Under the pieces are notes generated by a model. The model had not been told where the DNA came from, did no database searches, and saw only the letters and a list, made by a program, of their open reading frames with translations. Below are positions 9,014 through 57,193 of a DNA stretch of 64,000 nucleotides, piece by piece. Position 1 is the stretch's first letter. Each line of letters opens with the position of its first letter. The translations under genes were made by a program, and so were the position numbers. This DNA is from an uncultured Poribacteria bacterium (GTDB taxonomy: Bacteria > Poribacteria > WGA-4E > WGA-3G), in NCBI GenBank assembly GCA_951813545.1, contig OX638352.1, positions 4,867,966-4,931,965 of the forward strand, written 5' to 3'.

Positions 9014-9071
9014 GGTGATTTCTCCTCTGTTTTTTTGTTTAGATTTTACAATTACTTAGACATTTTAAAGA

Positions 9072-9220
9072 GGCGAGGATACAATCCTCGCCAGCAGTGA
9101 TGGAGGTTTTTACTTCTAAGGTTTCTGCTTAAAGAGGCGAGGATACAATCCTCGCCAGCAGTGATGGAGGTTTTTACTTCTAAGGTTTCTGCTTAAAGAG
9201 GCGAGGATACAATCCTCGCC
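9072..9220. repeat. Tandem repeat, 64-bp unit in about 2.9 copies, each carrying a family-1 REP hairpin (GGCGAGGATACAATCCTCGCC)
   Basis: The unit aaagaggcgaggatacaatcctcgccagcagtgatggaggtttttacttctaaggtttctgctt is repeated at 9067, 9131 and 9195. Confidence 0.85.
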
Positions 9221-9383
9221 AGCAGTGATGGAGGTTTTTACTTCTAAGGTTTTCCGCCCCTACGGGGAAACCTGGATTTTTTGTCCACGCGCTGCTATAA
9301 ACATGCTGAAGAAACACCCAACCAAATAAACCTTACAGGACTGAAGAAAGGGCTTAGGGTATACACGGTTTTTACCTAAGATC

Positions 9384-9420
9384 CGGTGCGGTTGCAAACC
9401 GCACCTACCGGACCTGGGAC
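9384..9420. repeat. Family-2 REP hairpin (CCGGTGCGGTTGCAAACCGCACCTACCGG)
   Basis: Near-identical copies at 29624-29660, 32698-32730 (variant) and 54683-54710. Confidence 0.75.
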
Positions 9421-9469
9421 CGAAGCTGTTCCTTTTCTAAAATTGACACTTATGGTGCAGTTTCCTAAC

Positions 9470-41000: not shown

Positions 41001-44000
41001 TGGCAATGATATTGATCTGATCTGTTTCTATTCCATACTGGTTCGATTAAAAGTTGATAGTCATGGGTTACCTGTTGACGTTGCTAAGTTTCTATTCCAT
41101 ACTGGTTCGATTAAAAGGTACCCATTTTCCGTCTTACCGTTAGCAACGTCAACGTTTCTATTCCATACTGGTTCGATTAAAAGCGCACAACTGATGCAGT
41201 TCCGCCCCCCCCAGGAATGTTTCTATTCCATACTGGTTCGATTAAAAGAAAGATCTGAATTAAACTGCTATCTTCACATTCTGTCGTGTTTCTATTCCAT
41301 ACTGGTTCGATTAAAAGCATGTCAGGCGGTGCCATGATGCACATTAACTTCAAGATCAGGGTTTCTATTCCATACTGGTTCGATTAAAAGTCATCGAACC
41401 CATCCACGACATCGACGAACGCCGCGTTTCTATTCCATACTGGTTCGATTAAAAGGGGTATCGTCCGGCATAGCGCTCACAGGCGTAGAGGGTTTCTATT
41501 CCATACTGGTTCGATTAAAAGATCAATAAAATTTTCTTCAAAGGTGCTGTGCAGTGTTTCTATTCCATACTGGTTCGATTAAAAGTCCCTTCTATTAAGG
41601 TATCCACAAGTTCATTCTGGTTTCTATTCCATACTGGTTCGATTAAAAGCCTGACAGCCACAATTATCGCAGACGTTGACAGCGTGGTTTCTATTCCATA
41701 CTGGTTCGATTAAAAGCCGATGGCAAGGGAATAAACCCCCTTGCCACAACAAAGTTTCTATTCCATACTGGTTCGATTAAAAGTAACTTCGGATCGTCTT
41801 CATCATCAAAGTCTTGTTGAGTTTCTATTCCATACTGGTTCGATTAAAAGGCGAAACGAGATCAGCATACGCGTTCGACGCGCCCCAGTTTCTATTCCAT
41901 ACTGGTTCGATTAAAAGGAGGTTATCCAAAGTTACTACGACCGTAACGAAAAAGGTTTCTATTCCATACTGGTTCGATTAAAAGGCAGGCATCAAGCGAA
42001 ACTTACGGAGGTTATCACAGTTTCTATTCCATACTGGTTCGATTAAAAGTTATTCGGTGCGTCATAAAGCACGCGACCATTTGCAAGTTTCTATTCCATA
42101 CTGGTTCGATTAAAAGGTCTTACCAAACGGATGCCTCTGGGACAGATGAAGGTTTCTATTCCATACTGGTTCGATTAAAAGTTTATCGGGGGGAATTACC
42201 CAGAGGGCTATGGCGGCGTTTCTATTCCATACTGGTTCGATTAAAAGAACAGGGCGGAGTCCTCTTGGGGATTGTTGGTCACGTTTCTATTCCATACTGG
42301 TTCGATTAAAAGGCGGGAACATCAGAAACGGTATGAGGAAATCCGTATAGGTTTCTATTCCATACTGGTTCGATTAAAAGACGCGCCGAGAGAGACGCAC
42401 TGTACACACTTCGCAGTGGTTTCTATTCCATACTGGTTCGATTAAAAGATTAACACCTAAATCACTTTGAAACGTTTGACGTGGTTTCTATTCCATACTG
42501 GTTCGATTAAAAGGAGACATTCATACCGATGTCGATACCGATCTCTTGGGTTTCTATTCCATACTGGTTCGATTAAAAGCGGATACGGGCGGTGCTCTTA
42601 GAACTGTATATCTCGTGTTTCTATTCCATACTGGTTCGATTAAAAGGGGTTTCCTGACGCATAGTAATCCATTTTTTGATCTACGTTTCTATTCCATACT
42701 GGTTCGATTAAAAGAAAATTCAGAGTGTTACACCAAAGGGACACCTTTTCGAGTTTCTATTCCATACTGGTTCGATTAAAAGGTCAGGAAAGAAGATGAC
42801 GCAGGAGGGTTAAACGTTTCTATTCCATACTGGTTCGATTAAAAGTTCCCCGCACTGCCAAGATAAAGAAGAGCAATTTCATAGTTTCTATTCCATACTG
42901 GTTCGATTAAAAGCTGGTCAAAACTAGGCTCCCAACAACAACCAGTTAAGTTTCTATTCCATACTGGTTCGATTAAAAGTCACAAACTGAGCAGTGCCGA
43001 CAACCCACCTTGACATGTTTCTATTCCATACTGGTTCGATTAAAAGTCAAGGTCGTGGAAGGCAGGATAATCGTTTTCAAGATGTTTCTATTCCATACTG
43101 GTTCGATTAAAAGGGTACTTTCGAGAACCCTAATGCGACTTTTGATAGTCAAGTTTCTATTCCATACTGGTTCGATTAAAAGCGCACGCACGCCTGCAAC
43201 AGTCTCTCCGACTGTAATGTTTCTATTCCATACTGGTTCGATTAAAAGATAAACTTCTCCCAGCCAAACTGGGATGTCAACATACGATCATGTTTCTATT
43301 CCATACTGGTTCGATTAAAAGCTCCGCTTTCGGCCTTTGCGATAGCGTCTCCGAGATTGTTTCTATTCCATACTGGTTCGATTAAAAGATATGCTCCTCG
43401 CACGGTTCAGGCTGGGTGGCTTAGGTTTCTATTCCATACTGGTTCGATTAAAAGGACATAGCTACAAATATAGGAGGTATCAGCAGTGGGTGTTTCTATT
43501 CCATACTGGTTCGATTAAAAGTGAAATGATACAGGCATGGGCTTCTGGAGAGATGACAAGTTTCTATTCCATACTGGTTCGATTAAAAGACGTTTAGACG
43601 ACCGTTTACGATGATGCTTGCGAACGTTTCTATTCCATACTGGTTCGATTAAAAGTCCAGATATGGCAGTTGACACCGAGATTCACAGAATTGTTTCTAT
43701 TCCATACTGGTTCGATTAAAAGGTATGAGGAAATCCGTATAGCGGAAGCGACGTTGGAAGGTTTCTATTCCATACTGGTTCGATTAAAAGTATACAGCCA
43801 GCGGTACGGTAGAAGTTCAATATAGTGTTTCTATTCCATACTGGTTCGATTAAAAGCTTACACGTATCGACCGGCAGTGATACTCGATCTGATGTTTCTA
43901 TTCCATACTGGTTCGATTAAAAGAATATCTATGTCCTGCTCACTGACAGAAACATCCTGGTTTCTATTCCATACTGGTTCGATTAAAAGCCAAGAAATTA

Positions 44001-44322
44001 TACCAGCCACCCGTATCGGTCCAAGTTTCTATTCCATACTGGTTCGATTAAAAGCGAACTCAACTTACCGACAGCCGAATCGACATCATCAAGTTTCTAT
44101 TCCATACTGGTTCGATTAAAAGAGCGCACTTGGCGCGATGTGGTATCCCGATACATAAGAGTTTCTATTCCATACTGGTTCGATTAAAAGCACTCGAATC
44201 AATGCCCAAGCATCGCTTGATTTGACGTTTCTATTCCATACTGGTTCGATTAAAAGGTAAGTTGTAACAGCCTTGTTAGAACGTTTCGGAATGTTTCTAT
44301 TCCATACTGGTTCGATTAAAAG
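35067..44322 (-). CRISPR. CRISPR array with 139 copies of a 30-bp repeat (GTTTCTATTCCATACTGGTTCGATTAAAAG on the plus strand) and 138 spacers of about 34-42 nt
   Basis: Repeat starts were counted manually. The terminal repeat at 35067-35096 is degenerate (gtttcaattctctactggttcgattaaaaa). The leader-proximal perfect repeat at 44293-44322 abuts the cas2-side leader. Transcription is inferred on the minus strand, where the repeat reads CTTTTAATCGAACCAGTATGGAATAGAAAC and ends in GAAAC. Confidence 0.95.
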
Positions 44323-44579
44323 GCTCTACGAAAACCATGTATATATCATACAGAACTCCTGTGGGGCGTGTCAAGTCAATTTTACTTACTGCATGTTCTA
44401 AGACCAATTTGCTGTCGATCTTCGGTAGTGTAAATTCTCTGGGAGGTTGACGGCTCTTTACAAAGCGCGGGTTCGGACACTCATTTGACGAGAAATGACG
44501 GATGTGGTTACCTTTCAAAACCCTGATATAAGCGCGGTCGACAGCGGATTTTAGGTTTAAATTTCAGTACAAGTTACAC
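44323..44579 (-). promoter_or_regulatory. CRISPR leader
   Basis: A 257-bp non-coding segment between the cas2 stop and the first perfect repeat. The degenerate repeat at the opposite end of the array supports this as the leader side. Confidence 0.55.
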
Positions 44580-44843
44580 CTAAAGCAAGTTTGTTGCCGG
44601 GTTTTTATCTACACCCATAACCTCTTTATTCATCCAGCGGACATCGCGTAACTGGTAGATGATAATGGAGTCCTTTTCGGGATCAGTGAGTGCTGCTAAC
44701 CCAGATTTGACTCGTGCCAACTGCGCTTTGGTTAACTGTCCTTCAAAAACCGAATTTTGAATCCAATTGAGGTGTTGACGGAGATATTTGCATACCTTTG
44801 CGACACGTTCAACTTGAATGTCGTAAACGAGAATAATATACAT
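44580..44843 (-). CDS. cas2: Cas2
   Basis: MYIILVYDIQVERVAKV... matches the Cas2 N-terminus. The longer ORF's N-terminal extension is encoded by a family-1 REP hairpin (44866-44886), so the start is placed at the internal Met. Confidence 0.8.
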   Translation of the reverse strand: MYIILVYDIQVERVAKVCKYLRQHLNWIQNSVFEGQLTKAQLARVKSGLAALTDPEKDSIIIYQLRDVRWMNKEVMGVDKNPATNLL

Positions 44844-44933
44844 CGGAGACAATTCCTTGATAAGAGGCGAGGTTGGAAACCTCGCCAGCGAATACACGAG
44901 ATTAAGCGTGGCATCGCGATCATGAGATAACGC

Positions 44934-45947
44934 CTACCACCACGGACGTAATGCCTGATAGGTTTCCATTTCGACGAGATGCTTGATGAGTTTATAGCAC
45001 TCCAAACGAATCAACCGCTGATATGAGACGTGCCGTTTCAATTTGCGATGCGAAACGGTTTGCTTCATTTGTTCATCAAACGCGGCGATAAACAGTTTGC
45101 GTCCTTGTTCATTGAGGGAACACGCGCCGACGTTCGTCTCAAAGTGCTTTGACTCGTTGAGCTGCCGCCGATTGAACAATCGGAAGATAATCCTGTCAAC
45201 AATGAGAGGTTTGAAAATTTCAGCGAGGTCAAGACTGAGCGAGAAACGTCTGGCACCCGGTTCATGGAGAAAACTGATTGTGGGGTTGAGCTGCGTCCGA
45301 TAAATTTCAGTTAAACATGCTGCATATATCAACGAATTGCCAAAAGAGATGGCAGCGTTAATCGGGTTGTCCGGTGGACGGCGCACCCGCTTTTCAAAAG
45401 GTACTTTTAATTCCAAAATCGTATTGAATGCGGTGTAATATGTGTCTCGGATCGTGCCTTCATACCCCATCAACTCATTTGTGTTTTTTGCTGAAGGACT
45501 TTCCGCAAGGAGCTTTTCAATCGGTTCAATTTGGGCATTGCAATCCTTGCCTCGATTCGTGTGATACCGTAAAATTCGCAACATGTTGAAGACAGCGGAG
45601 GCGACAAACTCCTGTGCAAGAACCATCCGCTTGGTAGATTTTTCGTAGTGTTGTACCTGTTTGACAAGCAGGGAACCGGAATTGAGGTATTCTCGGGGAT
45701 AGTAACTCCCGGAATAGTAGCCGTAATAGTTAAACACATGAAAGGCGATATGTTTTTGTGCGAGAAAGTTGAGAAGCTTGGTATTGAGGTCGAGTTCCCC
45801 GTAGAAATAGAGTGCGTCGATGTCCTCAACGGGGATTGGGACCCGTGACGTATCTTCTCGTTCCAAATAAAGGGTATTGTCTTTTCGGCGCAGTCTGCCG
45901 GGTTGGGTGATGTAGTAGTTACGTGACATAATTGGTTTTCCTCCCAT
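44934..45947 (-). CDS. cas1: Cas1 integrase
   Basis: 337 aa with a typical Cas1 N-terminus (YYITQPGRLRRKDNTLYLE) and a conserved C-terminal region. Confidence 0.9.
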   Translation of the reverse strand: MGGKPIMSRNYYITQPGRLRRKDNTLYLEREDTSRVPIPVEDIDALYFYGELDLNTKLLNFLAQKHIAFHVFNYYGYYSGSYYPREYLNSGSLLVKQVQHYEKSTKRMVLAQEFVASAVFNMLRILRYHTNRGKDCNAQIEPIEKLLAESPSAKNTNELMGYEGTIRDTYYTAFNTILELKVPFEKRVRRPPDNPINAAISFGNSLIYAACLTEIYRTQLNPTISFLHEPGARRFSLSLDLAEIFKPLIVDRIIFRLFNRRQLNESKHFETNVGACSLNEQGRKLFIAAFDEQMKQTVSHRKLKRHVSYQRLIRLECYKLIKHLVEMETYQALRPWW

Positions 45948-45984
45948 GCTTGGCTTACGGCACGGCGGCGTGTGCCTGCTACCT

Positions 45985-46494
45985 TTAACTCCAGCAGAGT
46001 TCCTGATAACTACAGGATTTACAGATTTTCATATAGTCGGCGTGCGGTGGTGTCGGCAGTGCTGCAATCTCGCTTACTTTTTCAATAGCGGTTTCCACCT
46101 CTCGTTCCGTTTCGGGTGTGAGTTCAACCTCCGTGGTTCGGTGTTGACGTGGATAGTTGATAACGCCTTTCCGGTTAGATATTCCTTTCTGTTTGAGCAG
46201 ATAGAGGTAATAACAGAGTTGCATGATGTGTGCGGTTTCCATCGCGGGACCAGATTTGATGTCGTGGAGGATGCCTTGTTTGTCAACGAAGTCAATCCGG
46301 ATGAGGTCGTCGATGTTCCATTCTCTCCGTTTTTCGCGAGTGTAACTTTCGTCGTGGAGGAGTTGTCCGAGGTCAACATATTCGGAGGTATGCTCCATTT
46401 CGAGGTGGTTTCGGTAGAACCAGAGTTTGCGCGTGCAGATGTAGAGATAGTTTATGGCTGTGCCTGTGATGTTGGTGTGGTCTGGGTTTTGCAT
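45985..46494 (-). CDS. cas4: Cas4 (RecB-like nuclease with C-terminal Fe-S Cys cluster)
   Basis: The N-terminus YICTRKLWF and the C-terminal Cys pair CKSCSYQELC are characteristic. Confidence 0.8.
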   Translation of the reverse strand: MQNPDHTNITGTAINYLYICTRKLWFYRNHLEMEHTSEYVDLGQLLHDESYTREKRREWNIDDLIRIDFVDKQGILHDIKSGPAMETAHIMQLCYYLYLLKQKGISNRKGVINYPRQHRTTEVELTPETEREVETAIEKVSEIAALPTPPHADYMKICKSCSYQELCWS

Positions 46495-46520
46495 TTGTGG
46501 GTATCTCCATTTTGAATAGG

Positions 46521-48857
46521 TTATAAGAGGTTTGGGTTAGGTTCATCCAATTGCAAACCGAGTGTCTCATCATAGCAAACGTTTATGAACCGCTGAGGAT
46601 TGGAGTCATCTTTATTGAGTAAGTTTTCACGGCATAGTTTCGCGAATTGATAATCACGGATTTGGGCAACATAAGCCATTGCTTCATAATATTCTTTTTC
46701 ATCAATATGTGCTAAATAAATATCTTTGAACTTAATTGGAACGACTTCAAAGCTTTTAAATAGATTTTCAAATTCATCGCGCCCGGATTTGTCCTCAATG
46801 AAGGGAAAGATGCTTTCCACATGCTGTTCAAACATCCGTTTTGCATCCTCAAACTTTGCTCGTTCATCTTCATTGTAGTCATCACCATAAATTTCATCAA
46901 TAAGACCTTGGATTTTGGATTCGGACAGGACATCATTAACTTGAGCGAACGCGTTTTTGGTGCGTTCGACCCTTTCAGTACTATAGATGAAACTGTCGCT
47001 TTTACCACCCTGATTGCATATATGAACATCACAGATACCTTTTTTACCTTTCCGGTTGATTCGACCAAAGCGTTGGATGAGCGCGTCTATAGGTGCGGGT
47101 TCTGTAAAGAGACAATCAAAATCAATGTCAAGCGAAACCTCAACTGCTTGCGTGCCTACAAGGAAATCAGCGTTTTTAAGTTCCTTTTCAATCCGTTGTC
47201 GGTCTTTGAGAATAAATCGGCTGTGAAGAAGTTTAGCTTTGTCCTCTTTGACTGCACCCCGCAATGTTTTAAATACTTCCTGTGCCTGATTAACGGTATT
47301 ACAGACAACCATGACACGCTCTTCTTCGTTTAGCTTATCCTCTATTTGCGGAATGGCATCGTGGATATTTCCATCAAATAACTGGACCCGGTGCCGAGTG
47401 AAATTTTTGTCTCGTTCTTCTGGTGCCATTTCAATCTGTGCAATCTGTGCAAGTTGCCCAAGTGCGTCGTTAATCATCTGTTTAAGAAACTTTGGCATTG
47501 TAGCAGTCATAATGCAGAATTTTGCATCGTAATCTTCACGGAGTTTCTTTATCATTGTCAAAATAAGTGCTGTGGTGTGTGGGTCATAGGCGTGGATTTC
47601 GTCAAAAATAAAGAGTCCTTGCGACATCTCTGACATCTGCATCTCAAAGCCGCGTATACCGAAAAATGCTTTTAGCAATTGAAAGGGGGTTAGCACCTTG
47701 TAAGGACGACAGATTTTATTAGTTAGGTCTCTTTCAACTTTCGCGTGTTTTTTCGCTTGTTCCTGCACAATTAGTTTTTTAGCAGATTCAGGTTCATGTC
47801 CTTCAGCAATGAGGGTTTGATATTTGGTTTGATACTTCTCATCAATATCTTGCCGTTTGTATTCCCTATCAGCGAATTGCCGATAAATGAAGTAGGCAGC
47901 TTTACCATGCAATACACCTATTTTTTCTTTAGTAACCAATTTTTTGAGGCGTTTATACATAGCGTTGATACTCGCTGTGTAAGGTAACACGTAAAAGACG
48001 CGATTTCCCAATGTCTTGCATTGATTTTTATCGGACCAGAGGAGTGCGGCTTCGGTTTTGCCGGAACCTGTCGGTGCTGAGAGCATGAGTTGCCCAATTG
48101 TTTCACCAGAGGCTTCTTGAAAGGATTCCCATTTGTCAAACTGTTTGATCTGTTCTACAAGACACGCTTCAAGGTTATCAAGTGCAGTTTGAACCTCATT
48201 TTTGCTGGCAGAAGCAGAAGCGAGATGGTCACAGGCAATCATACACCCGCGCATAAGCATGCCGTAGGTGCCATGTAAAGGCGTTAATTCTCTGTCCTCT
48301 TTGCTGTTCAGGTAAGGTCTCAGAAATTCTCGGTAACCCCCAATGAGTTGATCTGTTGACTTAACAGGTGTCCAAAAGCATTCTGCTGTAGGACACCACT
48401 GCGGTACTTGTTCCTGAATTTCCATCAAAGCGTCCCAATTTGGCGTAAGTTCTGCAATATGCTTTTGCCATTCTTGGTAGTCATATTCGTTCTCTTGTCC
48501 ACACGAATACTTCTCTACCAGTGTCTCAATATCCTTGTGATGTGTTAAAATTGCGAGTGCAATTGCCTGTTTTGCTGATTGTGAGGTTTGAAGGTTAACA
48601 ACAAATCCTGTCGATAGGATCTCATGACGATAGTTCCATCGCTTCCCATCGGTGAGCTGCTTTTGAAAACCTGTTGCTGCCTTTCCGAAATCGTGAAGCG
48701 CAACAGCGTAGAAAAGGTGTTCAAAGAAATCGGGTACTTTGGCAACCTCGGTTAAAAACGGCATCCGCTCTCGGAGGCTATTGTATACAGCAAGGCAATT
48801 CTTTGTATGTTCAAGAAGCGTTTCCGGTGGATCGCTTTTCGCAAACAATATTGACAT
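46521..48857 (-). CDS. cas3: Cas3 (HD nuclease fused to SF2 helicase)
   Basis: HD domain (ALHDFGKA...ILTHHKD), Walker A (SAPTGSGKTEAAL) and DEAH-like (FIFDEIHAYD) motifs. Confidence 0.9.
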   Translation of the reverse strand: MSILFAKSDPPETLLEHTKNCLAVYNSLRERMPFLTEVAKVPDFFEHLFYAVALHDFGKAATGFQKQLTDGKRWNYRHEILSTGFVVNLQTSQSAKQAIALAILTHHKDIETLVEKYSCGQENEYDYQEWQKHIAELTPNWDALMEIQEQVPQWCPTAECFWTPVKSTDQLIGGYREFLRPYLNSKEDRELTPLHGTYGMLMRGCMIACDHLASASASKNEVQTALDNLEACLVEQIKQFDKWESFQEASGETIGQLMLSAPTGSGKTEAALLWSDKNQCKTLGNRVFYVLPYTASINAMYKRLKKLVTKEKIGVLHGKAAYFIYRQFADREYKRQDIDEKYQTKYQTLIAEGHEPESAKKLIVQEQAKKHAKVERDLTNKICRPYKVLTPFQLLKAFFGIRGFEMQMSEMSQGLFIFDEIHAYDPHTTALILTMIKKLREDYDAKFCIMTATMPKFLKQMINDALGQLAQIAQIEMAPEERDKNFTRHRVQLFDGNIHDAIPQIEDKLNEEERVMVVCNTVNQAQEVFKTLRGAVKEDKAKLLHSRFILKDRQRIEKELKNADFLVGTQAVEVSLDIDFDCLFTEPAPIDALIQRFGRINRKGKKGICDVHICNQGGKSDSFIYSTERVERTKNAFAQVNDVLSESKIQGLIDEIYGDDYNEDERAKFEDAKRMFEQHVESIFPFIEDKSGRDEFENLFKSFEVVPIKFKDIYLAHIDEKEYYEAMAYVAQIRDYQFAKLCRENLLNKDDSNPQRFINVCYDETLGLQLDEPNPNLL

Positions 48858-48917
48858 AGATTTTTTCTCCGTAGGGGCGTGGTCCCCACATCCGATTTTG
48901 TTTCGTTTAAATGTTCC

Positions 48918-49544
48918 TTACCATCTCGAAGGGTTGTCAGGATGCAATTGATCTAATTCCCATTTCATCGGATTATCCTGAATATATTGGCGAAGTCGTT
49001 GTAAATCTGGTTCGTCTCGGATGATATGATCGTGATAATTTCTTTGCCAAACACGCGTTCTGGGTGTATTGTAGTGTTGGTTAATATGCTTGGTGGATTG
49101 ATATTTGAAATAGGCTATGATTTTGCCTAACGAGGGCGAGGGGACCTCGCCCCTACGATTATTTTCTGGTTCGTCTGACGCAGGCGAGGGGACCTCGCCC
49201 CTACGAGTGTTGGGATCTTCTGGTGGGCGTGGGGACCTCGCCCCTACGAGTGGTTGTGGATCCCTCGTCTCTGCGATGCCCCATGAAATAATTCCGTGAA
49301 AATGATTAGGCATGATGACAGAATCGCCCAATTCAACGGAGGGAAAATGTTGTGGAATATGTTTCCAACATTCAACGACAATTTGGCCTATTGCATTCAA
49401 TCGCATTTTCCCATCTGTTATTGTCCCCAATAAACATTTTCGGTGTTGTACACAGATGGTCACGAAATATGCACCGGGTTGGCTGTAATCATAATTACGC
49501 AAACGCATGGCGCGGCGTTGAGGAAGATTGGATTTGGAGTTCAT
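48918..49544 (-). CDS. REP-associated tyrosine transposase (RAYT, IS200/Y1 HUH superfamily) carrying in-frame REP insertions
   Basis: The N-terminus RLRNYDYSQPGAYFVTICVQ, the HuH motif NHFHGII, and the C-terminal WQRNYHDHIIRDEPDLQRLRQYIQDNPMKWE (catalytic Tyr) are RAYT hallmarks. Three copies of the hairpin GGCGAGGGGACCTCGCCCCTACG, at 49135-49153, 49183-49201 and 49228-49245, lie in-frame between the HuH and Tyr motifs and encode RRGEVPSP-type segments. Confidence 0.75.
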   Translation of the reverse strand: MNSKSNLPQRRAMRLRNYDYSQPGAYFVTICVQHRKCLLGTITDGKMRLNAIGQIVVECWKHIPQHFPSVELGDSVIMPNHFHGIISWGIAETRDPQPLVGARSPRPPEDPNTRRGEVPSPASDEPENNRRGEVPSPSLGKIIAYFKYQSTKHINQHYNTPRTRVWQRNYHDHIIRDEPDLQRLRQYIQDNPMKWELDQLHPDNPSRW

Positions 49545-49562
49545 AAGGAAACCCCCTCAGCG

Positions 49563-49624
49563 GGCGAGGAAACCTCGCCCCTACGATATTTTACGGTTGA
49601 ATTGGACGAGGGGACCTCGCCCCT
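49563..49624. repeat. Two family-1 REP hairpins immediately upstream of the RAYT gene
   Basis: ggcgaggaaacctcgcccctacg (49563-49585) and gacgaggggacctcgcccctacg (49607-49629). Confidence 0.8.
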
Positions 49625-49632
49625 ACGATGTG

Positions 49633-50367
49633 TTATGGTGAGATGCTGGGGAGTTGCATCTGTTTTCCGTCCACATCAGGAACTTGATAGTTTTTGTCAA
49701 CGGGTTTCCTCTTTTGCTCATTTGGAACGGTAAACTCCCCAGGAATACGTTCGTGTAGATACACACCCCAATCCATTTCTGGGTCGTGCAAAACATCACC
49801 ACGGTATTCAATTTTTTCTGTTATCAGACAATATGCACGCGTGCCGCAAGGACGACGCGGGATTTCTGCTGTGAAATGGGTTGGAAGTGCCTGAACCTGT
49901 CCATATAATTGTGCGTCAGGAAACGGAAGCAGCGTATCTTGATAGGTTGTTTCTGATACGTTTTCGAGTTGAATTTCCTTTATAGATTCTACGGTTGCTA
50001 GATCGGAGGACCGCCCTAAGAGTAACGGATAACACGGGCGTTCAAACGCTTCTTTTAACCACATATCAGGCGTATAGAGATAGAGTTCGGGTTGGACAAG
50101 AAATTCGCGTTTGTTGACGTTTGACTTGGCATCCAATTTTCCTGCAAACTCATAGAGGGTTTCTAAATCAACGGCTTTGCCGTTACTCTTGAAAACAAAT
50201 CCGATTGTGGCATCATGTGGCGTAACCCAATCCCCCTTTGCAGCAGAAAGAAGACCATAGATTGCTGATAGTGGAGGCAAAGGGAGTGTCGGTTGGAATC
50301 CACTAATGAATAGCGGATTCCGAAACGACGCGACCCAACCGGTGATGTGCACCCGAATCACTTTCAT
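49633..50367 (-). CDS. cas5: Cas5 (type I)
   Basis: The N-terminus MKVIRVHITGWVASFRNP matches Cas5. It overlaps the cas7 stop by 4 nt. Confidence 0.7.
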   Translation of the reverse strand: MKVIRVHITGWVASFRNPLFISGFQPTLPLPPLSAIYGLLSAAKGDWVTPHDATIGFVFKSNGKAVDLETLYEFAGKLDAKSNVNKREFLVQPELYLYTPDMWLKEAFERPCYPLLLGRSSDLATVESIKEIQLENVSETTYQDTLLPFPDAQLYGQVQALPTHFTAEIPRRPCGTRAYCLITEKIEYRGDVLHDPEMDWGVYLHERIPGEFTVPNEQKRKPVDKNYQVPDVDGKQMQLPSISP

Positions 50368-51398
50368 GGTGAGTCTCCGATATGAATTTCTAACTTTTGT
50401 GATAGTTGAGCGATCACTTTATTTGGCGAATCGTAAACGATTTCGCACGGTAGATTTGTGTCCTCTCCTAACCCACACAGAGCTCCTTCTAACTCATCCA
50501 TGAACCCGTTTCGTCTGCCGATGTAAATTGCATCACAAAACCGGTCAGCGTAGTCGTCAATAACTTGTCGCAGTGCGAGTAGACTCAGTTTCCCTACACC
50601 GTTTTCTTCAACGATGAGATTCATGAAAGGATGATTGCCGCCGTCAAGGACTGAAAGAATAATAAGTTTCGGGGTGACATCGGTGAGGTGTGATGTTAAC
50701 TTTGCCCCACCACTGAGAATAGGCAGTACTTCAAGCGTCTGTTGGCAACGTCTGAGCCGAGTTTCTTTTGGTAGTACCCACGGTGATTTCTCATCTGCCT
50801 GTGAGCCACCAGCATCTTGAATCTTGGGAACATAACTCTCGGCTATGTTCAGATAACCCGTTTTATTGATGTGAGAAAACGCTCCAACAGCCGCAAGGTC
50901 AAGAGAAAAAATGCCCTGTAGAACACATGAATAAAACTGATGTTCATAAGGCACAGGGTCGCCTTTTTTTTGACGTGCCATCACGCCAAAATCGTTCGTT
51001 GGGGTTTGCGGTTCAATAGAGATAAGCGGTGAGCATTTGAGCGGTGACAAGCGGGTTACCGTCAAGTTAACCTTTTTCTTCCCTTGCATTTCGCTTTGTG
51101 CGCGCATATAACCAAAGACGTCGTCATCGTCATAAGTCACAGGGTCTGCGGCAGTAAAGGCGATTTTTTTCTCGCGTTCTATAGGTGAATTTTTCCAGTC
51201 GTCAAATTCCTGTTCAAGCGTTGTTCGCCACCAATTTCGCCATGCCTGTCCGGAAACATACGGATAGGCATCTCGTCTTTTCTGAAGTTTTTTGACGGTA
51301 ACGATATTCTCTGTGGCTTGAGATGCTTCTGTTCCAGCATTGTTTAGCGCAGAATAGGGCGCGTCAATTAGGGTTAGTCCAATAAGGTGCTTAGACAT
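50364..51398 (-). CDS. cas7: Cas7 (type I-B-like backbone subunit)
   Basis: The N-terminus LTLIDAPYSALNNAGTE...YPYVSGQAWRNWWR is typical of the Cas7 Csh2/Cst2 group. Confidence 0.75.
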   Translation of the reverse strand: MSKHLIGLTLIDAPYSALNNAGTEASQATENIVTVKKLQKRRDAYPYVSGQAWRNWWRTTLEQEFDDWKNSPIEREKKIAFTAADPVTYDDDDVFGYMRAQSEMQGKKKVNLTVTRLSPLKCSPLISIEPQTPTNDFGVMARQKKGDPVPYEHQFYSCVLQGIFSLDLAAVGAFSHINKTGYLNIAESYVPKIQDAGGSQADEKSPWVLPKETRLRRCQQTLEVLPILSGGAKLTSHLTDVTPKLIILSVLDGGNHPFMNLIVEENGVGKLSLLALRQVIDDYADRFCDAIYIGRRNGFMDELEGALCGLGEDTNLPCEIVYDSPNKVIAQLSQKLEIHIGDSP

Positions 51399-51412
51399 GA
51401 TTAGTCCTCCTT

Positions 51413-52816
51413 TTATGATGCATCATCTGCATCTGATGTATTCTCTTCTTCGTATTCTACATAACCGTGTTCTTGTAACCAACTGTGGAGTTGTTCGTAA
51501 ATCCGAAATAGCAGTAGGTCGCGTGTCTCTCGCCACGGCGTAAGGTTGAGGTTATCGCTCGCGGGGAAAAGATATTCCATGTAATCATCAATTGAAAATA
51601 AGGGTTCCGGTGCACCTTGTTGAATCCTTTCACGGATGACATAGCGTAAAATATTTCTACATTCACCGTAACTTTTTGCCCGCTCTAATTGCTTAAGCCG
51701 CTTATCATCTTTAGATTCCTGGATGCACTCAGAAATTAGATTTCCGACCTGCTTAATTTTTTCAACTCGTGTTTGCTCCATAGTTCTAACCTCCTGTAGA
51801 TAGAGGGAAAATAGTTCCCAGTTGCTGCGTGTTTTCCGCGCGAGTTTATCAATGAAAAATCCACGTATTGATTTATCCTCTAACAGATTATTATAGACTA
51901 AATTTGTCGATTTTTGATAAATCTCGGTTGGGTTTGTCTTATCCGAATCAATATTTTGAAACCCTTTTTTTGTTTGTCTCCTATAACCACTTCTGACAAT
52001 TAGATACCAGTTTTTGGCATACTGTGCCCGATGTGCATAGCGCAGAAAATTAAAGACCCTTGCTGGCAAGTGATACAGGTCTAATTCAGCTTTCCTATTA
52101 TCATTGGAAAAACTGTAAACCTGCATCGTAATATTCCCATCTGATCGTGCTTTTTCATACTCGATCATTTTCCTTACCATATAGAAAAGAGCATTTTGAG
52201 CTTTTGATTCCTTTGGATCAAAAAATCCCGTAAATTCGTTTCGGGACCCGCGACTAATAACATCTTCAATACAAGTTCTCGTCCAGTAACTTATGGCTTT
52301 CCAAGAATTTGAGTGTAAAGCTAAAAACTTTCCTCCACTACGAACAAATCCTAACGGTGCCAATTGGATAGCAAGCGCACATGCAGCACAATAACCAACG
52401 CCCTCTGCGAATAAAGGGAAGAAATTTCGTAGACTTCCAGAACCCGTGAGTGGAACTTCTGTCTTCTTAAGATGAAAATCCGCACTTCGCCTACCACATC
52501 CCATGCAATCGCCAGTATCACCCAGATCGGTAACTTTACAAAGTTGATGGAACCATTCTGATTTAAGTTCTTCATTAAGGCTCTGTATGCCTTTTTGGAT
52601 TTTGCTATGCTGGGTTAAGGTGCTGTTTGGAAAAATAAATCGGATTTGAGTGCGGTATTCGGACTCACAATAAAGCGGTACAACCTGCTGAACGACTTCT
52701 TGTAAATCTTCGACTGTAATTTCATTTGGCTGCGGGTGCCCCCCTAGCCATTCACAAATCGCACATACTCCGGCATCAACAAATGGATTGCCCATTAGTT
52801 TCTCATATATTGGCAT
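51413..52816 (-). CDS. cas8b: Putative Cas8b-like large subunit (divergent)
   Basis: 467 aa, in the large-subunit position between cas6 and cas7. It has a Cys-rich segment (CMGCGRR...CAACALA). Similarity is weak; assignment is by position. Confidence 0.45.
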   Translation of the reverse strand: MPIYEKLMGNPFVDAGVCAICEWLGGHPQPNEITVEDLQEVVQQVVPLYCESEYRTQIRFIFPNSTLTQHSKIQKGIQSLNEELKSEWFHQLCKVTDLGDTGDCMGCGRRSADFHLKKTEVPLTGSGSLRNFFPLFAEGVGYCAACALAIQLAPLGFVRSGGKFLALHSNSWKAISYWTRTCIEDVISRGSRNEFTGFFDPKESKAQNALFYMVRKMIEYEKARSDGNITMQVYSFSNDNRKAELDLYHLPARVFNFLRYAHRAQYAKNWYLIVRSGYRRQTKKGFQNIDSDKTNPTEIYQKSTNLVYNNLLEDKSIRGFFIDKLARKTRSNWELFSLYLQEVRTMEQTRVEKIKQVGNLISECIQESKDDKRLKQLERAKSYGECRNILRYVIRERIQQGAPEPLFSIDDYMEYLFPASDNLNLTPWRETRDLLLFRIYEQLHSWLQEHGYVEYEEENTSDADDAS

Positions 52817-52986
52817 AGCATTTATCTCCTTTCAAAACTACTATAAATATATTATATCCTGTTTACTAAATTAAGTAAAGTTAAAATTTATTTAGGTTTC
52901 TGCCGCGCCGAAACGAGGCGGATTTTGAGTTTTCACCGCTCTACCTAACCTACGGTTATACCTCATTTTTTATTCTTCAACTCATG

Positions 52987-53385
52987 TTAATTGAGCATTA
53001 CTTCCTTCCAAGCAGTTTTACCGAAGGGGACTGCGAATTCGGTTATTATCACATTCTCATCAAAGCCATGTTTTAATTCATCTTCAAGTTTCAATCCGAA
53101 TTGTGCGTCAGGCATTCGCCATTCAATCGATCGCGGGTGTAGATCATTATAGATCTCTACAACATGGATTGGATGTTTCTTTCTTAAATATGCCGTGTAT
53201 ACAAAAGCTTGCGTTTGATGATCTATGAACAAGTACGGTATTAGATATGCCACTCCAAGTTTGGTGAGGTAGTTGGGAACCTCGTTAGTTCTATTTGCGA
53301 CAGTACAAACAAAACCGAAAAGATTGCATTGATTCCATGCAGCAATATATTCTTTGGAAGCCTTCATAATTTCCTCCAAGTCCAT
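52987..53385 (-). CDS. Hypothetical 132-aa protein, possibly NTF2/SnoaL-like fold, inserted in the cas operon
   Basis: The N-terminus MKASKEYIAAWNQCNLFGF resembles SnoaL/NTF2-like starts. It is embedded in an AT-rich segment between cas6 and cas8. Confidence 0.35.
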   Translation of the reverse strand: MDLEEIMKASKEYIAAWNQCNLFGFVCTVANRTNEVPNYLTKLGVAYLIPYLFIDHQTQAFVYTAYLRKKHPIHVVEIYNDLHPRSIEWRMPDAQFGLKLEDELKHGFDENVIITEFAVPFGKTAWKEVMLN

Positions 53386-53590
53386 TCAGTAAAAATTCGG
53401 TCTGCATCCCATAGCAGGTTACTATATAACACTCTAATCTTAATTATACGCGAAACAACTTTATTTGTCAAATATAATTCCATTTTTTTTTAATTTAGTA
53501 TAACTTAACATAACAAAGGATTTTTTAATTATACGCGAAACAACTTTATTTGTCAAATTTCTTGATTAATTCAAAGGGTACTCCAATTCC

Positions 53591-53674
53591 AAATTGGTTC
53601 GATTAAAGATAAACAAAAAAGCGCGTTAGTATCACATAACAAAACAAGTTTCTATTCCATACTGGTTCGATTAG
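53591..53674 (-). CRISPR. Orphan mini-array: one truncated and one near-complete copy of the CRISPR repeat with a 39-nt spacer
   Basis: aaattggttcgattaaag (53591-53608) and gtttctattccatactggttcgattag (53648-53674) match the array repeat. They lie in AT-rich, leader-like sequence downstream of cas6. Confidence 0.6.
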
Positions 53675-53787
53675 ATTATTGATTTCACGTTATATTAGAC
53701 GTTTCACATTTAAAATGGTTTACAGAAACTTTTAAAATATGTGTGTGTGGTCCTCAGCCATACATAAACCCACCCTCATAGTAGGTC

Positions 53788-54540
53788 TTAGACTTCTGCC
53801 ATCCCGAAACCGGCACTGTTTTTGTCGCCGAAACCACACTCGTAGCCGGTTTGGATTAATGCGGGACTTCCAGAGACACGGAATGGACACATCATTCCCT
53901 TTATCTTGATTCCTTTGTAGTCCACCAGACGAGTGACGCGTCCCTGTCGTCTGTCAATGTAGTCTTTATCAAAGGCGAAGGTCAGGGTATCGTCGTGGGG
54001 GACGCGAGCGTGGATTGCTTCGTGTTTGCGGATTAGGTTTTGGCGGATGAGTTCGGAGAGTACTGGATCGTCGGGTAGGCAGTAGTGCATTGCTTGCTTG
54101 CCGTCTCGCTCGCGCTTAGTGGACATTACAATCGGGGAGAGACATCGGAAATGCATTTCTGATTGGAAACGGGGGATACGCGGTATTGTGACATCCGTAA
54201 TTGGCAACCGACGCTGCCCAATGGATAACCGTCCCTCGGTTAAGAGTGTATTGGCGAAATGGGAGAGAAAGCGTTCTACTGGCGAGGAGACGTACCATGT
54301 TAAAGTTGAACGGAAATGGATTTTGTCACCGGTGATGCGTCTGCGTTCTGCCATTAATTGGGAGAAGGTGAAGAGTTTGAAACGTTTCTCGGCAGCGCGG
54401 TAGCCTTCCTCATGTAGAAAAGAGGCATACTCAGGGTCGGATTCGGCGAGGAAACGATAGATGACACCGGCGAGCAGGTGGTTGTAGTTAATGGGTAGGG
54501 TGAGTCCGTTCCCGACATCGGCAACGATTTTGATGCGCAT
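53788..54540 (-). CDS. cas6: Cas6 endoribonuclease
   Basis: 250 aa with a C-terminal glycine-rich loop GFGDKNSAGFGMAEV typical of Cas6. Confidence 0.75.
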   Translation of the reverse strand: MRIKIVADVGNGLTLPINYNHLLAGVIYRFLAESDPEYASFLHEEGYRAAEKRFKLFTFSQLMAERRRITGDKIHFRSTLTWYVSSPVERFLSHFANTLLTEGRLSIGQRRLPITDVTIPRIPRFQSEMHFRCLSPIVMSTKRERDGKQAMHYCLPDDPVLSELIRQNLIRKHEAIHARVPHDDTLTFAFDKDYIDRRQGRVTRLVDYKGIKIKGMMCPFRVSGSPALIQTGYECGFGDKNSAGFGMAEV

Positions 54541-54587
54541 TGGGTTATCTCCGTCAAGGCTATTATTATTGAGACGCTGAGGGATCG

Positions 54588-54715
54588 GGCGAGGTTAGAA
54601 ACCTCGCCAGCAGGGCGGTGGATGTATCCTCTCATTTTTCAGGCGAGCTTTGGGTTTCACTACGTTCAACCCAACCTACGATGCCATCCGATGCGGTTGG
54701 GAAACCGCACCTACC
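54588..54715. repeat. BIME-like cluster of three different REP-family hairpins upstream of cas6
   Basis: Family 1 ggcgaggttagaaacctcgcc (54588-54608); family 5 ttgggtttcactacgttcaacccaacctacgatgcc (about 54643-54680); family 2 gatgcggttgggaaaccgcacctacc (about 54683-54710). Confidence 0.6.
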
Positions 54716-54736
54716 GTGATTGTAAGGATGAAAAAT

Positions 54737-55243
54737 TTATATCCCCATGCGGAGGGCAACGGCGGCGAGTAGGATCAGTAGTGAAACAACACCCATCAGA
54801 CTGGACACTATTGACATCTGGGAACGGAGTGGTTTCACCTCCGGCGGAAGTTCTTCAAGTGTGGGATCTAAAGTCTCAATTGCTGCTGCCAATCGCGGTG
54901 CGAAAAGCATACTGTGCAATGCCGTGAGGATAACCAGCAGAAAGAAAAGTCCGATTTTGATTATGAATGTTCGCATAAACGCATTGGGAATTGGGGCGAG
55001 AGAGGTGAGATCCAAGGCATAGAAAATATTGCCGATACCCGTGAAGAACAGCACACCGATACAGCCCCACACAACAGGTTCAAACCGTTTCCCTATCTGC
55101 ATCAAGAGTTGGATGCGTTGGACAGGCGGTAGGTTCTGTCTGAAATAAGGAACAATCACCATCGCCAAAATGAGGTTACCACCGACCCATACAACAGCGG
55201 CAATAACGTGTAGCCAAAGAACTAAGAGCCAGAATATTTCCAT
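54737..55243 (-). CDS. Polytopic membrane protein (CopD/DUF-like)
   Basis: 168 aa with four or five TM helices and a motif WLHVIAAVVWVGGN. Confidence 0.4.
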   Translation of the reverse strand: MEIFWLLVLWLHVIAAVVWVGGNLILAMVIVPYFRQNLPPVQRIQLLMQIGKRFEPVVWGCIGVLFFTGIGNIFYALDLTSLAPIPNAFMRTFIIKIGLFFLLVILTALHSMLFAPRLAAAIETLDPTLEELPPEVKPLRSQMSIVSSLMGVVSLLILLAAVALRMGI

Positions 55244-55432
55244 TTTTATTATTCCTTTTAATAGTTGTCAGTTAAAGAGGGGTTTGACCTAATCAGAGAC
55301 CTCAATCATTCGTTTGCACAGCCTAACAGGCTATGCTACAGTTCCTTTTAAAGTTGTCAGTTGTCAGTTATCAGTTGTCAGTTAAAGAGGGGTTTGATCT
55401 AATCAGAGATCTCAATCATTCAGGAGGACAAT

Positions 55433-57193
55433 CTACGTGGCGTGAGCGTCTTGGTGGTTTTCAATATCGTTGATAACACCGTCCACGCGGGTGATTAGAT
55501 TATTCCGTTCGTCTGAACTGAGTGGTACAGGTGCGAAACGGTGGTAATCACACTTCGTGAGGAGATCGACAAGTTCCTCAATAATAGGTTCGGAGACCTG
55601 TGCGTGAGTACACATTTCGCGTGCCGTGTCAATATTGCGTTCTGAGAGTGCGAAAGTATCTTCAAGGTACTGGTAAAGCGTTTGCGCGAGTGCATTGGCG
55701 AAGGTCGTTCCGGTGTCTGTCGTGTCGCTACGTGCGAGTGCCGCGAGGGCATCGTGCGCCTGTGAAACCGGTGTTACCTGCTCTCCTTCGGCAGGCTGCG
55801 TTTTTTGGTTTCTTGGTCCACTACTGTCAGGCGCGCGTGTTCCCGCGGAGTTGTTTATCCGTGCCTTTGTAGGCATCACAAATCCGGTGCGATACCAGAG
55901 ATACCCACCGACCGCCAATATAACGAGTAGAACTGCGAATAGGATTAACCAGCGAATCCATGGTGAACCGTCCGTATCGTCAAGAGTATCGTTCGGGTTC
56001 GGACGCACGGAGATCGGGATAGGGGTTGTCTCCGTCGTCGCATATACCGCACGGCTTGGATCGAAGTAGCCATACTTAATCGCTGGGATCCGCAAGGCAC
56101 CTGTTCGAGCAGGGGTCAGGACGTACGCGTAACCCCGATTTGTTAACGTAGAATCTGCCACGAGATTGGGTCCGCTCACCATGACCCCGGCGATTGTTGG
56201 CAGTTTGGGTGGTGTGACCGTCTGGATGTTGCCGTGTCCAGAGATACGGACAGTGAACGTTAGCGGGTGTCCAACTTCAATCCAACCACGCTCAATTTCA
56301 GCAGAAATTTGATATTCACCGATAGCACCGTTGAAGTGAGGAGGTCTGCCTGTTTCGGGAATCGGTTGCACCGTCAGTGTCAAAGGTTTGGTTTTTAAGG
56401 TTTTGCGTCCTTGCGGGAGTGGTAGTAGAAGTTCAGCAGGTGCGAGAACGATCTGTCCGGCTTTCTTCGGATATAACTTATGTGTGTATTCCTCGACCCA
56501 AAATGTTCGCCCACGAATTTGCTGTGTGTATGTCGGCACCTTTTGAAGTGTCTCAACGAAGAAATCACGGAATGTCGGGAGGCGCGGAGTTGGGGATTCA
56601 CGAGTTGGAAGAACTGTGGTGTAGAGGTGTCGGAAGGTATACGTAAAGGGTGCATTCAGGTAGGGCTGTGACGTGTTGACCTCTGCTTCAACTTGGTGGA
56701 TAGCGTTGGTTGAAACATCTATGTATGTGTCAGCACCGCTCACCCGGATCGAACCCGGATTTGCAAAATAGGCGTTACCTTGGTAGGCAAAACGGATGTC
56801 GGACAGGGCAAAATCCCCCACTGCTTGCGGAATCAATTCATAAACCCATGCCATGGAAACAGCAATCTTGTCTGATTCCAATCGCGGTGTAGTTTCTGAA
56901 TGCAGTGGCACTGCGAGGAACGCAGGTAGGAAGTTGAACTGCGGTGCCTCAATATGTTTGATGAAGGTTTTTCCCGAAATCGTGAGGTCCAACCTTGCCT
57001 TCTCCCCGAATTGGATGTGGCGAGGACTTATGATGGCAGCGACATTAATCTCTTGGCTTTGTGCCTGTGTTGTAAGAAGGATGAAAACGATGCCGACGAA
57101 AAAGATTGGAAGACTCTTGGTTGGAAGAGTGGAAGAGTGGAAGAGTGGGTACCCATCCTTCCATCCCCTTCTTCCCTTCTTCCATCCTTCCAT
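55433..57193 (-). CDS. batD: BatD-like protein (aerotolerance operon family)
   Basis: A signal/TM N-terminus, a large extracytoplasmic domain, a C-terminal TM (WIRWLILFAVLLVILAVGGYLWY) and a cytoplasmic tail, as in BatD. Start placed at M47 of the ORF. Confidence 0.5.
   Translation of the reverse strand: MEGWKKGRRGWKDGYPLFHSSTLPTKSLPIFFVGIVFILLTTQAQSQEINVAAIISPRHIQFGEKARLDLTISGKTFIKHIEAPQFNFLPAFLAVPLHSETTPRLESDKIAVSMAWVYELIPQAVGDFALSDIRFAYQGNAYFANPGSIRVSGADTYIDVSTNAIHQVEAEVNTSQPYLNAPFTYTFRHLYTTVLPTRESPTPRLPTFRDFFVETLQKVPTYTQQIRGRTFWVEEYTHKLYPKKAGQIVLAPAELLLPLPQGRKTLKTKPLTLTVQPIPETGRPPHFNGAIGEYQISAEIERGWIEVGHPLTFTVRISGHGNIQTVTPPKLPTIAGVMVSGPNLVADSTLTNRGYAYVLTPARTGALRIPAIKYGYFDPSRAVYATTETTPIPISVRPNPNDTLDDTDGSPWIRWLILFAVLLVILAVGGYLWYRTGFVMPTKARINNSAGTRAPDSSGPRNQKTQPAEGEQVTPVSQAHDALAALARSDTTDTGTTFANALAQTLYQYLEDTFALSERNIDTAREMCTHAQVSEPIIEELVDLLTKCDYHRFAPVPLSSDERNNLITRVDGVINDIENHQDAHAT

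Follow-up and report, generated by a model that had tools for sequence, protein, structure and literature searches.

A type I-B CRISPR-Cas locus of an uncultured Poribacteria bacterium with a putative Cascade-repressed orf132 module and a RAYT passenger

Results

We analyzed a 64-kb stretch of contig OX638352.1 from an uncultured Poribacteria bacterium (hereafter the window, to which all positions refer), in which a type I-B CRISPR-Cas operon is split by two non-cas segments: one holds a small gene, orf132, between cas6 and cas8, and the other a gene for a RAYT-like Y1 (HUH) transposase between cas5 and cas3. In our judgement the locus probably combines an orf132 module that is repressed by Cascade, of the kind known from CreTA, CrePA and CRISIS, with a RAYT passenger that brings its own REP hairpins. 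The case for the first part is a short guide-like sequence beside cas6 that matches a site just behind a promoter upstream of orf132, an arrangement that recurs with different sequences in related loci.

A degenerate mini-CRISPR matches the promoter upstream of orf132

The cas6-cas8 segment opens with a degenerate, creA-like mini-CRISPR of the form psiR1-psiS-psiR2, which is absent from the preliminary description of this DNA and lies outside the main array, in the 400-nt spacer between cas6 and orf132 (Table 1). All three differences between psiR1 and the repeat consensus fall at its 5' end, leaving the 8-nt 5'-handle part (AUAGAAAC) intact, and psiR2 keeps the 3'-handle part, as in characterized creA genes. 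Two promoters follow, P1 and P2, the second an exact duplicate of the first 85 nt downstream; together they are the sole sites that match all 12 sigma-70 consensus positions in the 10.5 kb scanned. A CCT that would serve as protospacer adjacent motif (PAM) starts 8 nt past the -10 box of P1 and is followed by TTGTTATGTTAAGTTATACTAA, which equals psiS positions 1-22 except at 6, 12 and 15. We scored psiS against every CCN-flanked site on both strands of the window, ignoring positions 6, 12, 18 and 24, and the site behind P1 was the best of 6621 with 18/20 matches, the runner-up reaching 12/20.

The same arrangement was found in eight further loci (L004, L010, L012, L015, L031, L032, L037 and L039). 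Across the nine loci psiS and its target co-vary, with psiS starting for example with TTGTT, ATGTA or TAATA, and the best CCN match of each psiS always lies at the promoter directly downstream of it (top scores 16-19/20, runners-up 11-14). The PAM is CCT or CCA in 9/9 loci and falls within YYD, the PAM that was measured in Thermotoga maritima for an I-B system with Cas8b1. Mismatches within positions 1-18 are concentrated at positions 6, 12 and 18, those that Cascade flips out (21/27, versus 6/135 elsewhere; Fisher p = 5e-16, or p = 1e-13 without the near-duplicate L032): the flipped positions mismatch at about 78%, the rate of an unconstrained site, and the paired positions are almost invariant. 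The same mismatch pattern has been reported for the solitary repeat units of CRISIS. On this comparative evidence we take the 6/12/18 periodicity to be the structural signature of Cascade-guide pairing, and it excludes both a plain duplication of local sequence and the relic of an array in decay.

Several observations in the relatives bear on the same segment. In L004 the targeted promoter drives about 100 nt (9876-10000) with a Shine-Dalgarno sequence and an 8-codon open reading frame (ORF), MDFSVMLA, ahead of the cas8 promoter; rather than plain cas autoregulation, this stretch could represent a cargo, either a small RNA of the CreT kind or a mini-ORF. In L031 and L032 (5780-5895) psiR2 is separated from the targeted promoter by an inserted element of about 120 nt that resembles a miniature inverted-repeat transposable element and has terminal inverted repeats caggacttacgc...gcgtaagtct; a related element occurs in L030 (~9040-9165). 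L030 also has a seven-unit, strongly degenerate repeat array (9269-9783) between cas6 and a truncated cas8, in which two spacers are repeated and which differs from the two-repeat mini-arrays.

The orf132 family is tiny and lies within cas loci in every context examined

The true start of orf132 is probably a second ATG at 53367, which stands after a GGAGG Shine-Dalgarno sequence and yields 126 aa, the length of the homologue P0001. Close homologues numbered eight among 5.8 billion clustered proteins, and a profile search returned only 22 clusters among 1.84 billion representative proteins. In every context examined (the window, L010, L031, L032, L037/38 and L039/40) orf132 and its relatives occupy the cas6-cas8 gap of a I-B locus and are preceded by a mini-array and by a targeted promoter, including loci that encode a different Cas8 of ~573 aa with no Pfam match. 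The family is under purifying selection (ratio of non-synonymous to synonymous substitutions, dN/dS, 0.14-0.35). Structure prediction gave an oligonucleotide/oligosaccharide-binding (OB) fold resembling SSB and RPA, at a predicted local distance difference test (pLDDT) score of 88 once distant relatives had been added (pLDDT 35 with 9 sequences). The invariant residues include R32, Y79, W89 and R90, the kinds of residue that OB folds use for binding single-stranded nucleic acid, and they may serve that purpose here. No KilAC domain was matched in orf132 by Pfam, and the predicted barrel is an OB barrel, not KilAC.

Downstream of orf132 the native promoter-like site of cas8 has been kept. Relatives that lack an insert have a cas6-cas8 gap of 79 bp, and the promoter within that gap aligns with this site. 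Possible remnants of the cas6 3' end lie directly upstream of this native cas8 promoter in the window (a weak match, Table 1) and, clearly, in L010 (9846-9923), with further remnants in L014 (~9885-9930) and L042 (~1493-1540); all of these loci have an insert in the cas6-cas8 gap. Copies of cas6 are partial or duplicated in L005, L024 and L029. The point of entry of such inserts thus seems to be the 3' end of cas6, which they would bring along or duplicate.

A second accessory family occurs directly after cas6 in L001 (9380-9770), L004 (8950-9385), L031 (5107-5556), L032 (5165-5539) and L037 (4181-4609), and a fragment of it lies upstream of the L012 mini-array. Its members are 124-149 aa long and combine a signal-like segment at the N terminus, a coiled coil and a transmembrane segment at the C terminus; they have their own TTGACA promoter and gave only weak coiled-coil-type matches in PADLOC and PHROGs and no Pfam family. 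One metagenome-assembled genome (MAG), Plut_88880, appears to hold two such I-B loci, L002 and L010, one with the RAYT type of the window (RAYT-A) and the other with a second type (RAYT-B), a mini-array and the orf132 module; L010 has in addition an ORF of ~137 aa with a DTGA motif between cas6 and the mini-array.

A RAYT-like gene with in-frame REP hairpins recurs at the cas5-cas3 junction

The predicted transposase has the HUH motif MPNHFHGII (HFH) and the Tyr motif WQRNYHDHIIRD, both conserved in 14 aligned homologues. Its Y1_Tnp score rises to 34.1 bits once a REP-derived insert is removed (cutoff 23), and against NCBIfam NF047646 it attains 62.1 bits, or 75.6 without the REP-derived loop, short of the cutoff of 80. 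PADLOC and PHROGs gave no match to the protein. The accompanying hairpins, termed REP-A here and likewise absent from the preliminary description, are GTAG-tagged and read GTAGGGGCGAGG-TCC-CCTCGCC; the upstream pair is predicted to fold as RNA at -36 kcal/mol (z = -3.0). Three further copies stand in frame between the HUH and Tyr motifs of the gene itself, where they encode VGARSPRP and RRGEVPSP, and homologues hold ~1-5 REP copies in the same loop with the reading frame always kept. The inverted orientation of the REPs that flank the gene recurs in 17 loci.

Homologues with 57-84% identity occupy the same cas5-cas3 junction, co-oriented with the operon, in 12/30 Poribacteria loci and in 6/6 further look-ups, the latter RAYT proteins picked only because they lie on long contigs, which gives 18 other loci in all. 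The gene is under purifying selection (dN/dS 0.22). In L039, the closest relative (Cas8 86% identical), the RAYT gene is cut off just after the HUH motif, and RAYT is therefore not needed for CRISPR function. The junction varies among the other loci: in L010 and L012 it is taken up by another RAYT, a bona fide one (197 bits, NF047646), with different REPs, in L016 and L020 by a third REP type with no gene, in L004 and L025 by REP-A remnants, and in L026 by CGTAGG only. A comparison with I-B loci lacking the insert had been proposed in the preliminary description, and in L015, L018 and L027 the cas5-cas3 junction is short and clean, with no REP footprint.

RAYT distances correlate with those of cas5 and cas3 (Mantel r = 0.37 and 0.46; p <= 0.002) and not with those of cas7 or cas8. 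Strict co-divergence of RAYT and operon is not supported, as the Mantel result holds only for the adjacent cas5 and cas3 and the silent divergence of RAYT is lower: across 11 loci its median silent-site divergence (pS) is 0.43 (0.40 without the REP loop), versus 0.60-0.70 for all eight cas genes. The RAYT alleles therefore look younger than their surroundings, which points to homing or exchange at the junction, gene conversion, or silent-site constraint. The 64-kb window contains one RAYT copy and no REP-A outside the RAYT region. Confinement of REP-A to cas loci was considered and rejected, the exact 22-mer being present in at least 120 metagenome contigs from many habitats; among the 80 of those contigs that we examined, five had a distant RAYT and essentially none had cas genes.

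These features agree with known RAYT/REP (REPIN) systems in the Y1 HUH protein with its Tyr motif, the GTAG hairpin REPs in inverted orientation, and purifying selection, and the one copy in the sequence available is compatible with them. They differ in the score under the NCBIfam cutoff, in the gene's own REPs in frame within the ORF, and in the fixed junction inside a cas operon across many species. We picture the RAYT gene and its own GTAG-type hairpins as a selfish or domesticated element with a strong preference for the cas5-cas3 junction, which would be co-transcribed with the operon and dispensable for CRISPR function.

Long tandem REP-A runs flank RAYT in L001 (13164-13575), L023 (13164-13570), L034 (5690-6549) and L036 (5722-6152), with up to 15 copies upstream at a 27-28 nt period or ~10 inverted copies downstream; a 207-aa ORF called across the run in L034 is probably spurious. 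Other GTAG-type REPs occur in the window as single degenerate copies, one REP-B-like just after orf132 (52925-52953) and one REP-C-like far upstream (~63164), and several REP families therefore coexist in this genome.

The surrounding locus is a complete type I-B system

On the minus strand the order is cas6, orf132, cas8b1, cas7, cas5, RAYT-like gene, cas3, cas4, cas1, cas2, leader and array. Our ORF list and profile searches recovered all ten genes of the preliminary description on that strand and in the places it had given them, and bore out its two-segment interruption as well as its type I-B assignment with canonical gene order. That call is sound because the Cas8b1, Cst2, Cas5b and Cas1b models score far above curated cutoffs; a comparison of Cas8 with Cas8b hidden Markov models, which it had suggested, gave a TIGR01908 score well over the threshold (Table 1). 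All cas ORFs of the window are full-length relative to their homologues, and the locus is a complete and apparently intact CRISPR-Cas system of type I-B (Cas8b1/Cst1 type) with two lineage-typical passengers.

A search with Cas8 yielded 30 related loci, all from MAGs of Candidatus Poribacteria, which are sponge symbionts. In many of these relatives the same CopD-like and BatD-like genes adjoin the locus, which is therefore a chromosomal locus at a conserved position. The repeat pattern of the main array has a chance expectation of 0, and those of its repeats that are degenerate sit at the trailer end, towards low coordinates. With 137 spacers, all unique and without duplicates, it is a very large array, and no self-targets of these spacers were found in the window. 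Derivation of the mini-array from the main leader was rejected, the upstream sequences being dissimilar. Rfam gave no match within 44000-55500.

Table 1. Positions of the features of the locus within the window.
Feature	Position	Strand	Evidence or remark
cas6	53788-54540	minus	TIGR01877, 144 bits
Degenerate mini-CRISPR	53580-53677	minus	repeat comparison
psiR1	53677-53648	minus	27/30 match; 3' 26 nt identical
psiS	53647-53610	minus	38 nt
psiR2	53609-53580	minus	22/30 match; 5' two-thirds kept, 3' end degenerate
Promoter P1	53556-53528	minus	TTGACA-N17-TATAAT, 12/12 sigma-70
Predicted target of Cascade/crRNA-like RNA	53479-53519	minus	PAM CCT 53519-53517, protospacer from 53516
Promoter P2	53471-53443	minus	TTGACA-N17-TATAAT, 12/12
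orf132	52987-53385	minus	no family
Possible cas6 3'-end remnant	52892-52915	minus	cgtttcggcgcggcagaaacctaa; weak, 14/17 identities, E = 0.08
Native cas8 promoter-like site	52851-52879	minus	TTTACT-N17-TATAAT, 10/12
Cascade gene block (cas5b-cas7-cas8b1)	49633-52816	minus	
cas8b1/cst1	51413-52816	minus	TIGR01908, 131 bits (cutoff 19.4); Pfam Cas_CXXC_CXXC
cas7/cst2 (Cst2/DevR)	50364-51398	minus	TIGR02585, 207 bits
cas5b	49633-50367	minus	TIGR01895, 145 bits
REP-A, two direct copies between cas5 and RAYT	49563-49623	minus	GTAG-tagged hairpin
RAYT-like Y1 (HUH) transposase gene	48918-49544	minus	208 aa; Pfam Y1_Tnp, 25.1 bits (cutoff 23)
REP-A, three in-frame copies inside the RAYT ORF	49135-49153, 49183-49201, 49226-49244	minus	
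REP-A, inverted degenerate copy downstream of RAYT	48871-48892	minus	gtggggaccacgcccctac
cas3, HD nuclease and helicase fused	46521-48857	minus	TIGR01587 and TIGR01596 on one ORF
Adaptation gene block (cas2-cas1b-cas4)	44580-46494	minus	
cas4	45985-46494	minus	profile match
cas1b	44934-45947	minus	TIGR03641, 459 bits
cas2	44580-44897	minus	profile match
Leader	44323-44579	minus	257 nt; promoter-like TTGACA-N18-TATGAT at 44374-44345, 11/12
CRISPR array	35133-44322	minus	138 repeats, CTTTTAATCGAACCAGTATGGAATAGAAAC in transcribed sense; 137 spacers of 33-43 nt

Discussion

The guide-target match, its PAM and its mismatch periodicity lead us to a working model for the cas6-cas8 segment. The mini-CRISPR would be transcribed, likely by read-through from cas6 because no promoter-like site precedes psiR1, and Cas6 would cut the transcript into a CRISPR RNA (crRNA)-like RNA with an intact 8-nt 5' handle. 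Loaded into Cascade, this RNA is expected to pair over the ~22 nt of the observed match with the CCT-flanked site at about +2 of P1; such short pairing, by analogy with CreA and other crRNA-like RNAs, should allow binding without Cas3 recruitment. Cascade bound at 53516-53479 would block P1 at its predicted start site and turn orf132 transcription off, and would probably also damp read-through into cas8-cas7-cas5: no terminator is predicted after orf132, and P1 and P2 transcripts should therefore reach these genes, as a CreR-like feedback. P1 would fire and orf132 would be induced if the cell lost its Cascade, if an excess of crRNAs diluted it, or if an anti-CRISPR inhibited it. Much of this follows the established work on CreTA, CrePA, CRISIS and CreR, where a Cas6-type nuclease cuts the RNAs, the products are loaded into Cascade, partial PAM-flanked binding represses without Cas3 cleavage, and repression is lost on Cascade deletion, crRNA titration or the action of anti-CRISPR proteins. 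As to the product, we infer that orf132 could safeguard CRISPR, whether as an effector of growth arrest or abortive infection or as an addiction toxin.

Among the closest known systems is CreTA of the Haloarcula hispanica I-B system, a toxin RNA under Cascade repression paired with an antitoxin RNA that resembles CRISPR, whose genes likewise lie in the cas6-cas8 gap, have a degenerate two-repeat mini-CRISPR, and use a spacer whose PAM-proximal end partially pairs with the promoter of the adjacent gene. The locus described here differs in its bacterial host and sigma-70 promoters, in a cargo that is a protein gene (126-159 aa) instead of a small tRNA-sequestering RNA, and in the orientation of that cargo, co-directional with cas8 here and divergent in CreTA. 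The match of H. hispanica CreA is ~11 nt and that of psiS, at ~22 nt, is longer. CrePA of the Acinetobacter baylyi I-F system, with a proteinic toxin repressed by CRISPR, also places a mini-CRISPR inside the cas operon, with a psiS that matches ~19 nt next to the PAM and a small protein cargo found almost only at one cas junction; it belongs to subtype I-F, occupies the cas3-csy1 junction and carries a KilAC-domain cargo, to which orf132 with its predicted OB fold bears no relation in sequence or fold. In CRISIS (CRISPR-supervised immune systems, I-C), too, non-cas genes interrupt the cas operon, their promoter shows partial complementarity to a solitary repeat unit, and mismatches are preferred at positions 6 and 12. 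CRISIS differs in its subtype, in the location of the cargo between cas3 and cas5c, in a target 37-46 nt upstream of the transcription start (versus a target from about +2 of P1, as predicted here), and in cargoes with recognizable defence domains, which orf132 lacks. Finally, I-B loci are enriched, in the neighbourhood of cas6, for degenerate mini-arrays of the CreR and other regulatory kinds, whose targets are promoters of cas genes or of cargo (Liu et al. 2023; Shmakov et al. 2023). L004, L012 and L015 look like plain CreR arrangements of this kind, whereas the window has a protein cargo between the regulated promoter and cas8 and keeps a separate cas8 promoter. From these comparisons we conclude that the cas6-cas8 segment, judged by its sequence, is probably a Cascade-repressed module of the CreTA/CrePA/CRISIS type with a new cargo.

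Several results weigh against this reading. First, P2 has no psiS target behind it, an arrangement conserved in the window and in L039, and a strong toxin behind an unrepressed consensus promoter should not be tolerated; the untargeted P2 thus argues against strong toxicity of orf132. Either Cascade, whose predicted binding site ends 8 bp short of the -35 box of P2, would also block P2, or basal orf132 is tolerated, and the latter would favor an accessory factor. Second, no sigma-70-like site was found between cas6 and psiR1 from which the mini-array could be transcribed. Third, searches of Pfam, NCBIfam, PADLOC and PHROGs with orf132 yielded neither a toxin family nor a defence family, and Foldseek returned no match to its model at E <= 0.001, its OB likeness holding at fold level only. 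Fourth, neither the whole array searched against INPHARED (50,697 phage records) nor three leader-proximal spacers searched against IMG/VR gave a protospacer by which the PAM could be confirmed independently. Last, L004, L012 and L015 have the mini-array and the promoter directly upstream of cas8 and no orf132, and the primary role could therefore be cas autoregulation; autoregulation may be the older role, with orf132 a later cargo placed under it.

These three loci lead to the alternative that fares best, though we give it a clearly smaller chance: CreR-type autoregulation only, in which the mini-array serves to let Cascade repress a strong promoter feeding cas8-cas7-cas5(-cas3) and orf132 is a harmless accessory, for example a single-stranded DNA (ssDNA)-binding helper of interference. 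Besides the orf132-free mini-arrays, the lack of a predicted terminator between orf132 and cas8, the tolerance of the untargeted P2 in the window and L039, and the SSB/RPA-like OB fold are all in keeping with it, and H. hispanica CreA represses both creT and cas8. Against it stand the separate native cas8 promoter kept downstream of orf132, the invariable position of orf132 immediately behind the targeted promoter with a Shine-Dalgarno sequence of its own, and the fact that the targeted promoter is the sole one in 4/6 orf132 loci. The orf132 family is moreover missing from most related I-B loci and is therefore not needed for interference.

A more far-reaching proposal, which we hold to be unlikely, would make RAYT no passenger: an HUH ssDNA endonuclease lineage and its hairpins would home to, and be kept at, the cas5-cas3 junction of Poribacteria I-B operons because they work with the system, and alongside it orf132 would found a new OB-fold class of Cascade-repressed effectors. 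Possible roles for RAYT would then be that the REP hairpins set the Cascade:Cas3 expression ratio or that the nuclease acts on CRISPR-related ssDNA. Compatible with this are the intact, co-oriented gene under purifying selection in 18 other loci, the presence at this junction, in two loci, of a second RAYT family unrelated to the first, the REP footprints that stay where the gene is gone, and a pS below that of all eight cas genes.

The preliminary description had seen two foreign insertions that divide the operon into three blocks, each of which could bring a promoter or terminator of its own, so that expression of the interference complex and of the adaptation module may be uncoupled. Taken to mean two unrelated, recent insertions that passively split the operon into independently expressed blocks, this is in our view quite improbable. 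Both segments are missing from some relatives (the empty junctions of L015, L018 and L027 among them), strong promoters do occur in the cas6-cas8 insert, stable REP hairpins precede the RAYT gene, and the low silent-site divergence of RAYT relative to the flanking cas genes suggests later arrival or exchange. However, many relatives at species level have the two elements at these very junctions, which weakens the claim of foreign insertion by the description's own yardstick, and every RAYT is co-oriented with the operon. In evolutionary terms the segments are still accessory, some relatives having neither. As for expression signals, P1 and P2 bear out the expected promoters for the first insert, whereas the RAYT segment offers just a 10/12 site inside its ORF, and no terminator-like site is predicted on the coding strand of either. 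Uncoupled expression finds no support at the first insert, where the match of psiS to the insert's own promoter suggests the opposite: it would wire this segment to Cascade and place it under the control of the interference complex.

Finally, we regard it as highly improbable that the mini-array is a dead leftover from the decay or recombination of an array and owes its likeness to the downstream sequence to a functionless local duplication. The region does hold the P1/P2 duplication, and the cas6 3' remnants attest to past rearrangements, but a duplication would spread mismatches evenly, not gather them at positions 6, 12 and 18 (p = 5e-16), psiS differs among the nine loci and yet in each of them matches the locus's own promoter next to a CCN PAM, and the two handle parts are kept as in creA genes.

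As a class, mini-arrays close to cas6 of I-B loci are already known, and so are cargo genes that they control; new here are the cargo family, the bacterial I-B setting in Poribacteria and the strength of the comparative signal. In the literature that could be searched, which is incomplete, we found no work linking Poribacteria with mini-arrays and none on RAYTs in cas operons. CreTA, CrePA, CRISIS and CreR show in what way CRISPR systems watch over their own upkeep and react to anti-CRISPRs, and the cargo proteins known so far are few, those described coming from I-F and I-C systems of cultivable bacteria. To these the present locus adds a case in bacterial I-B, from sponge symbionts that are uncultivated, together with a new, tiny, strictly cas-associated protein family, and its comparative evidence for guide and target, combining co-variation with the 6/12/18 periodicity, is unusually clean. 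It also offers the hypothesis of an OB-fold effector that would be induced on Cascade failure, and its pair of regulated promoter and guide could be reused as a switch in the manner of CRISPR interference (CRISPRi). The RAYT, for its part, shows that a domesticated transposase, supposedly sedentary, can throughout a phylum be bound to a single junction within a defence operon.

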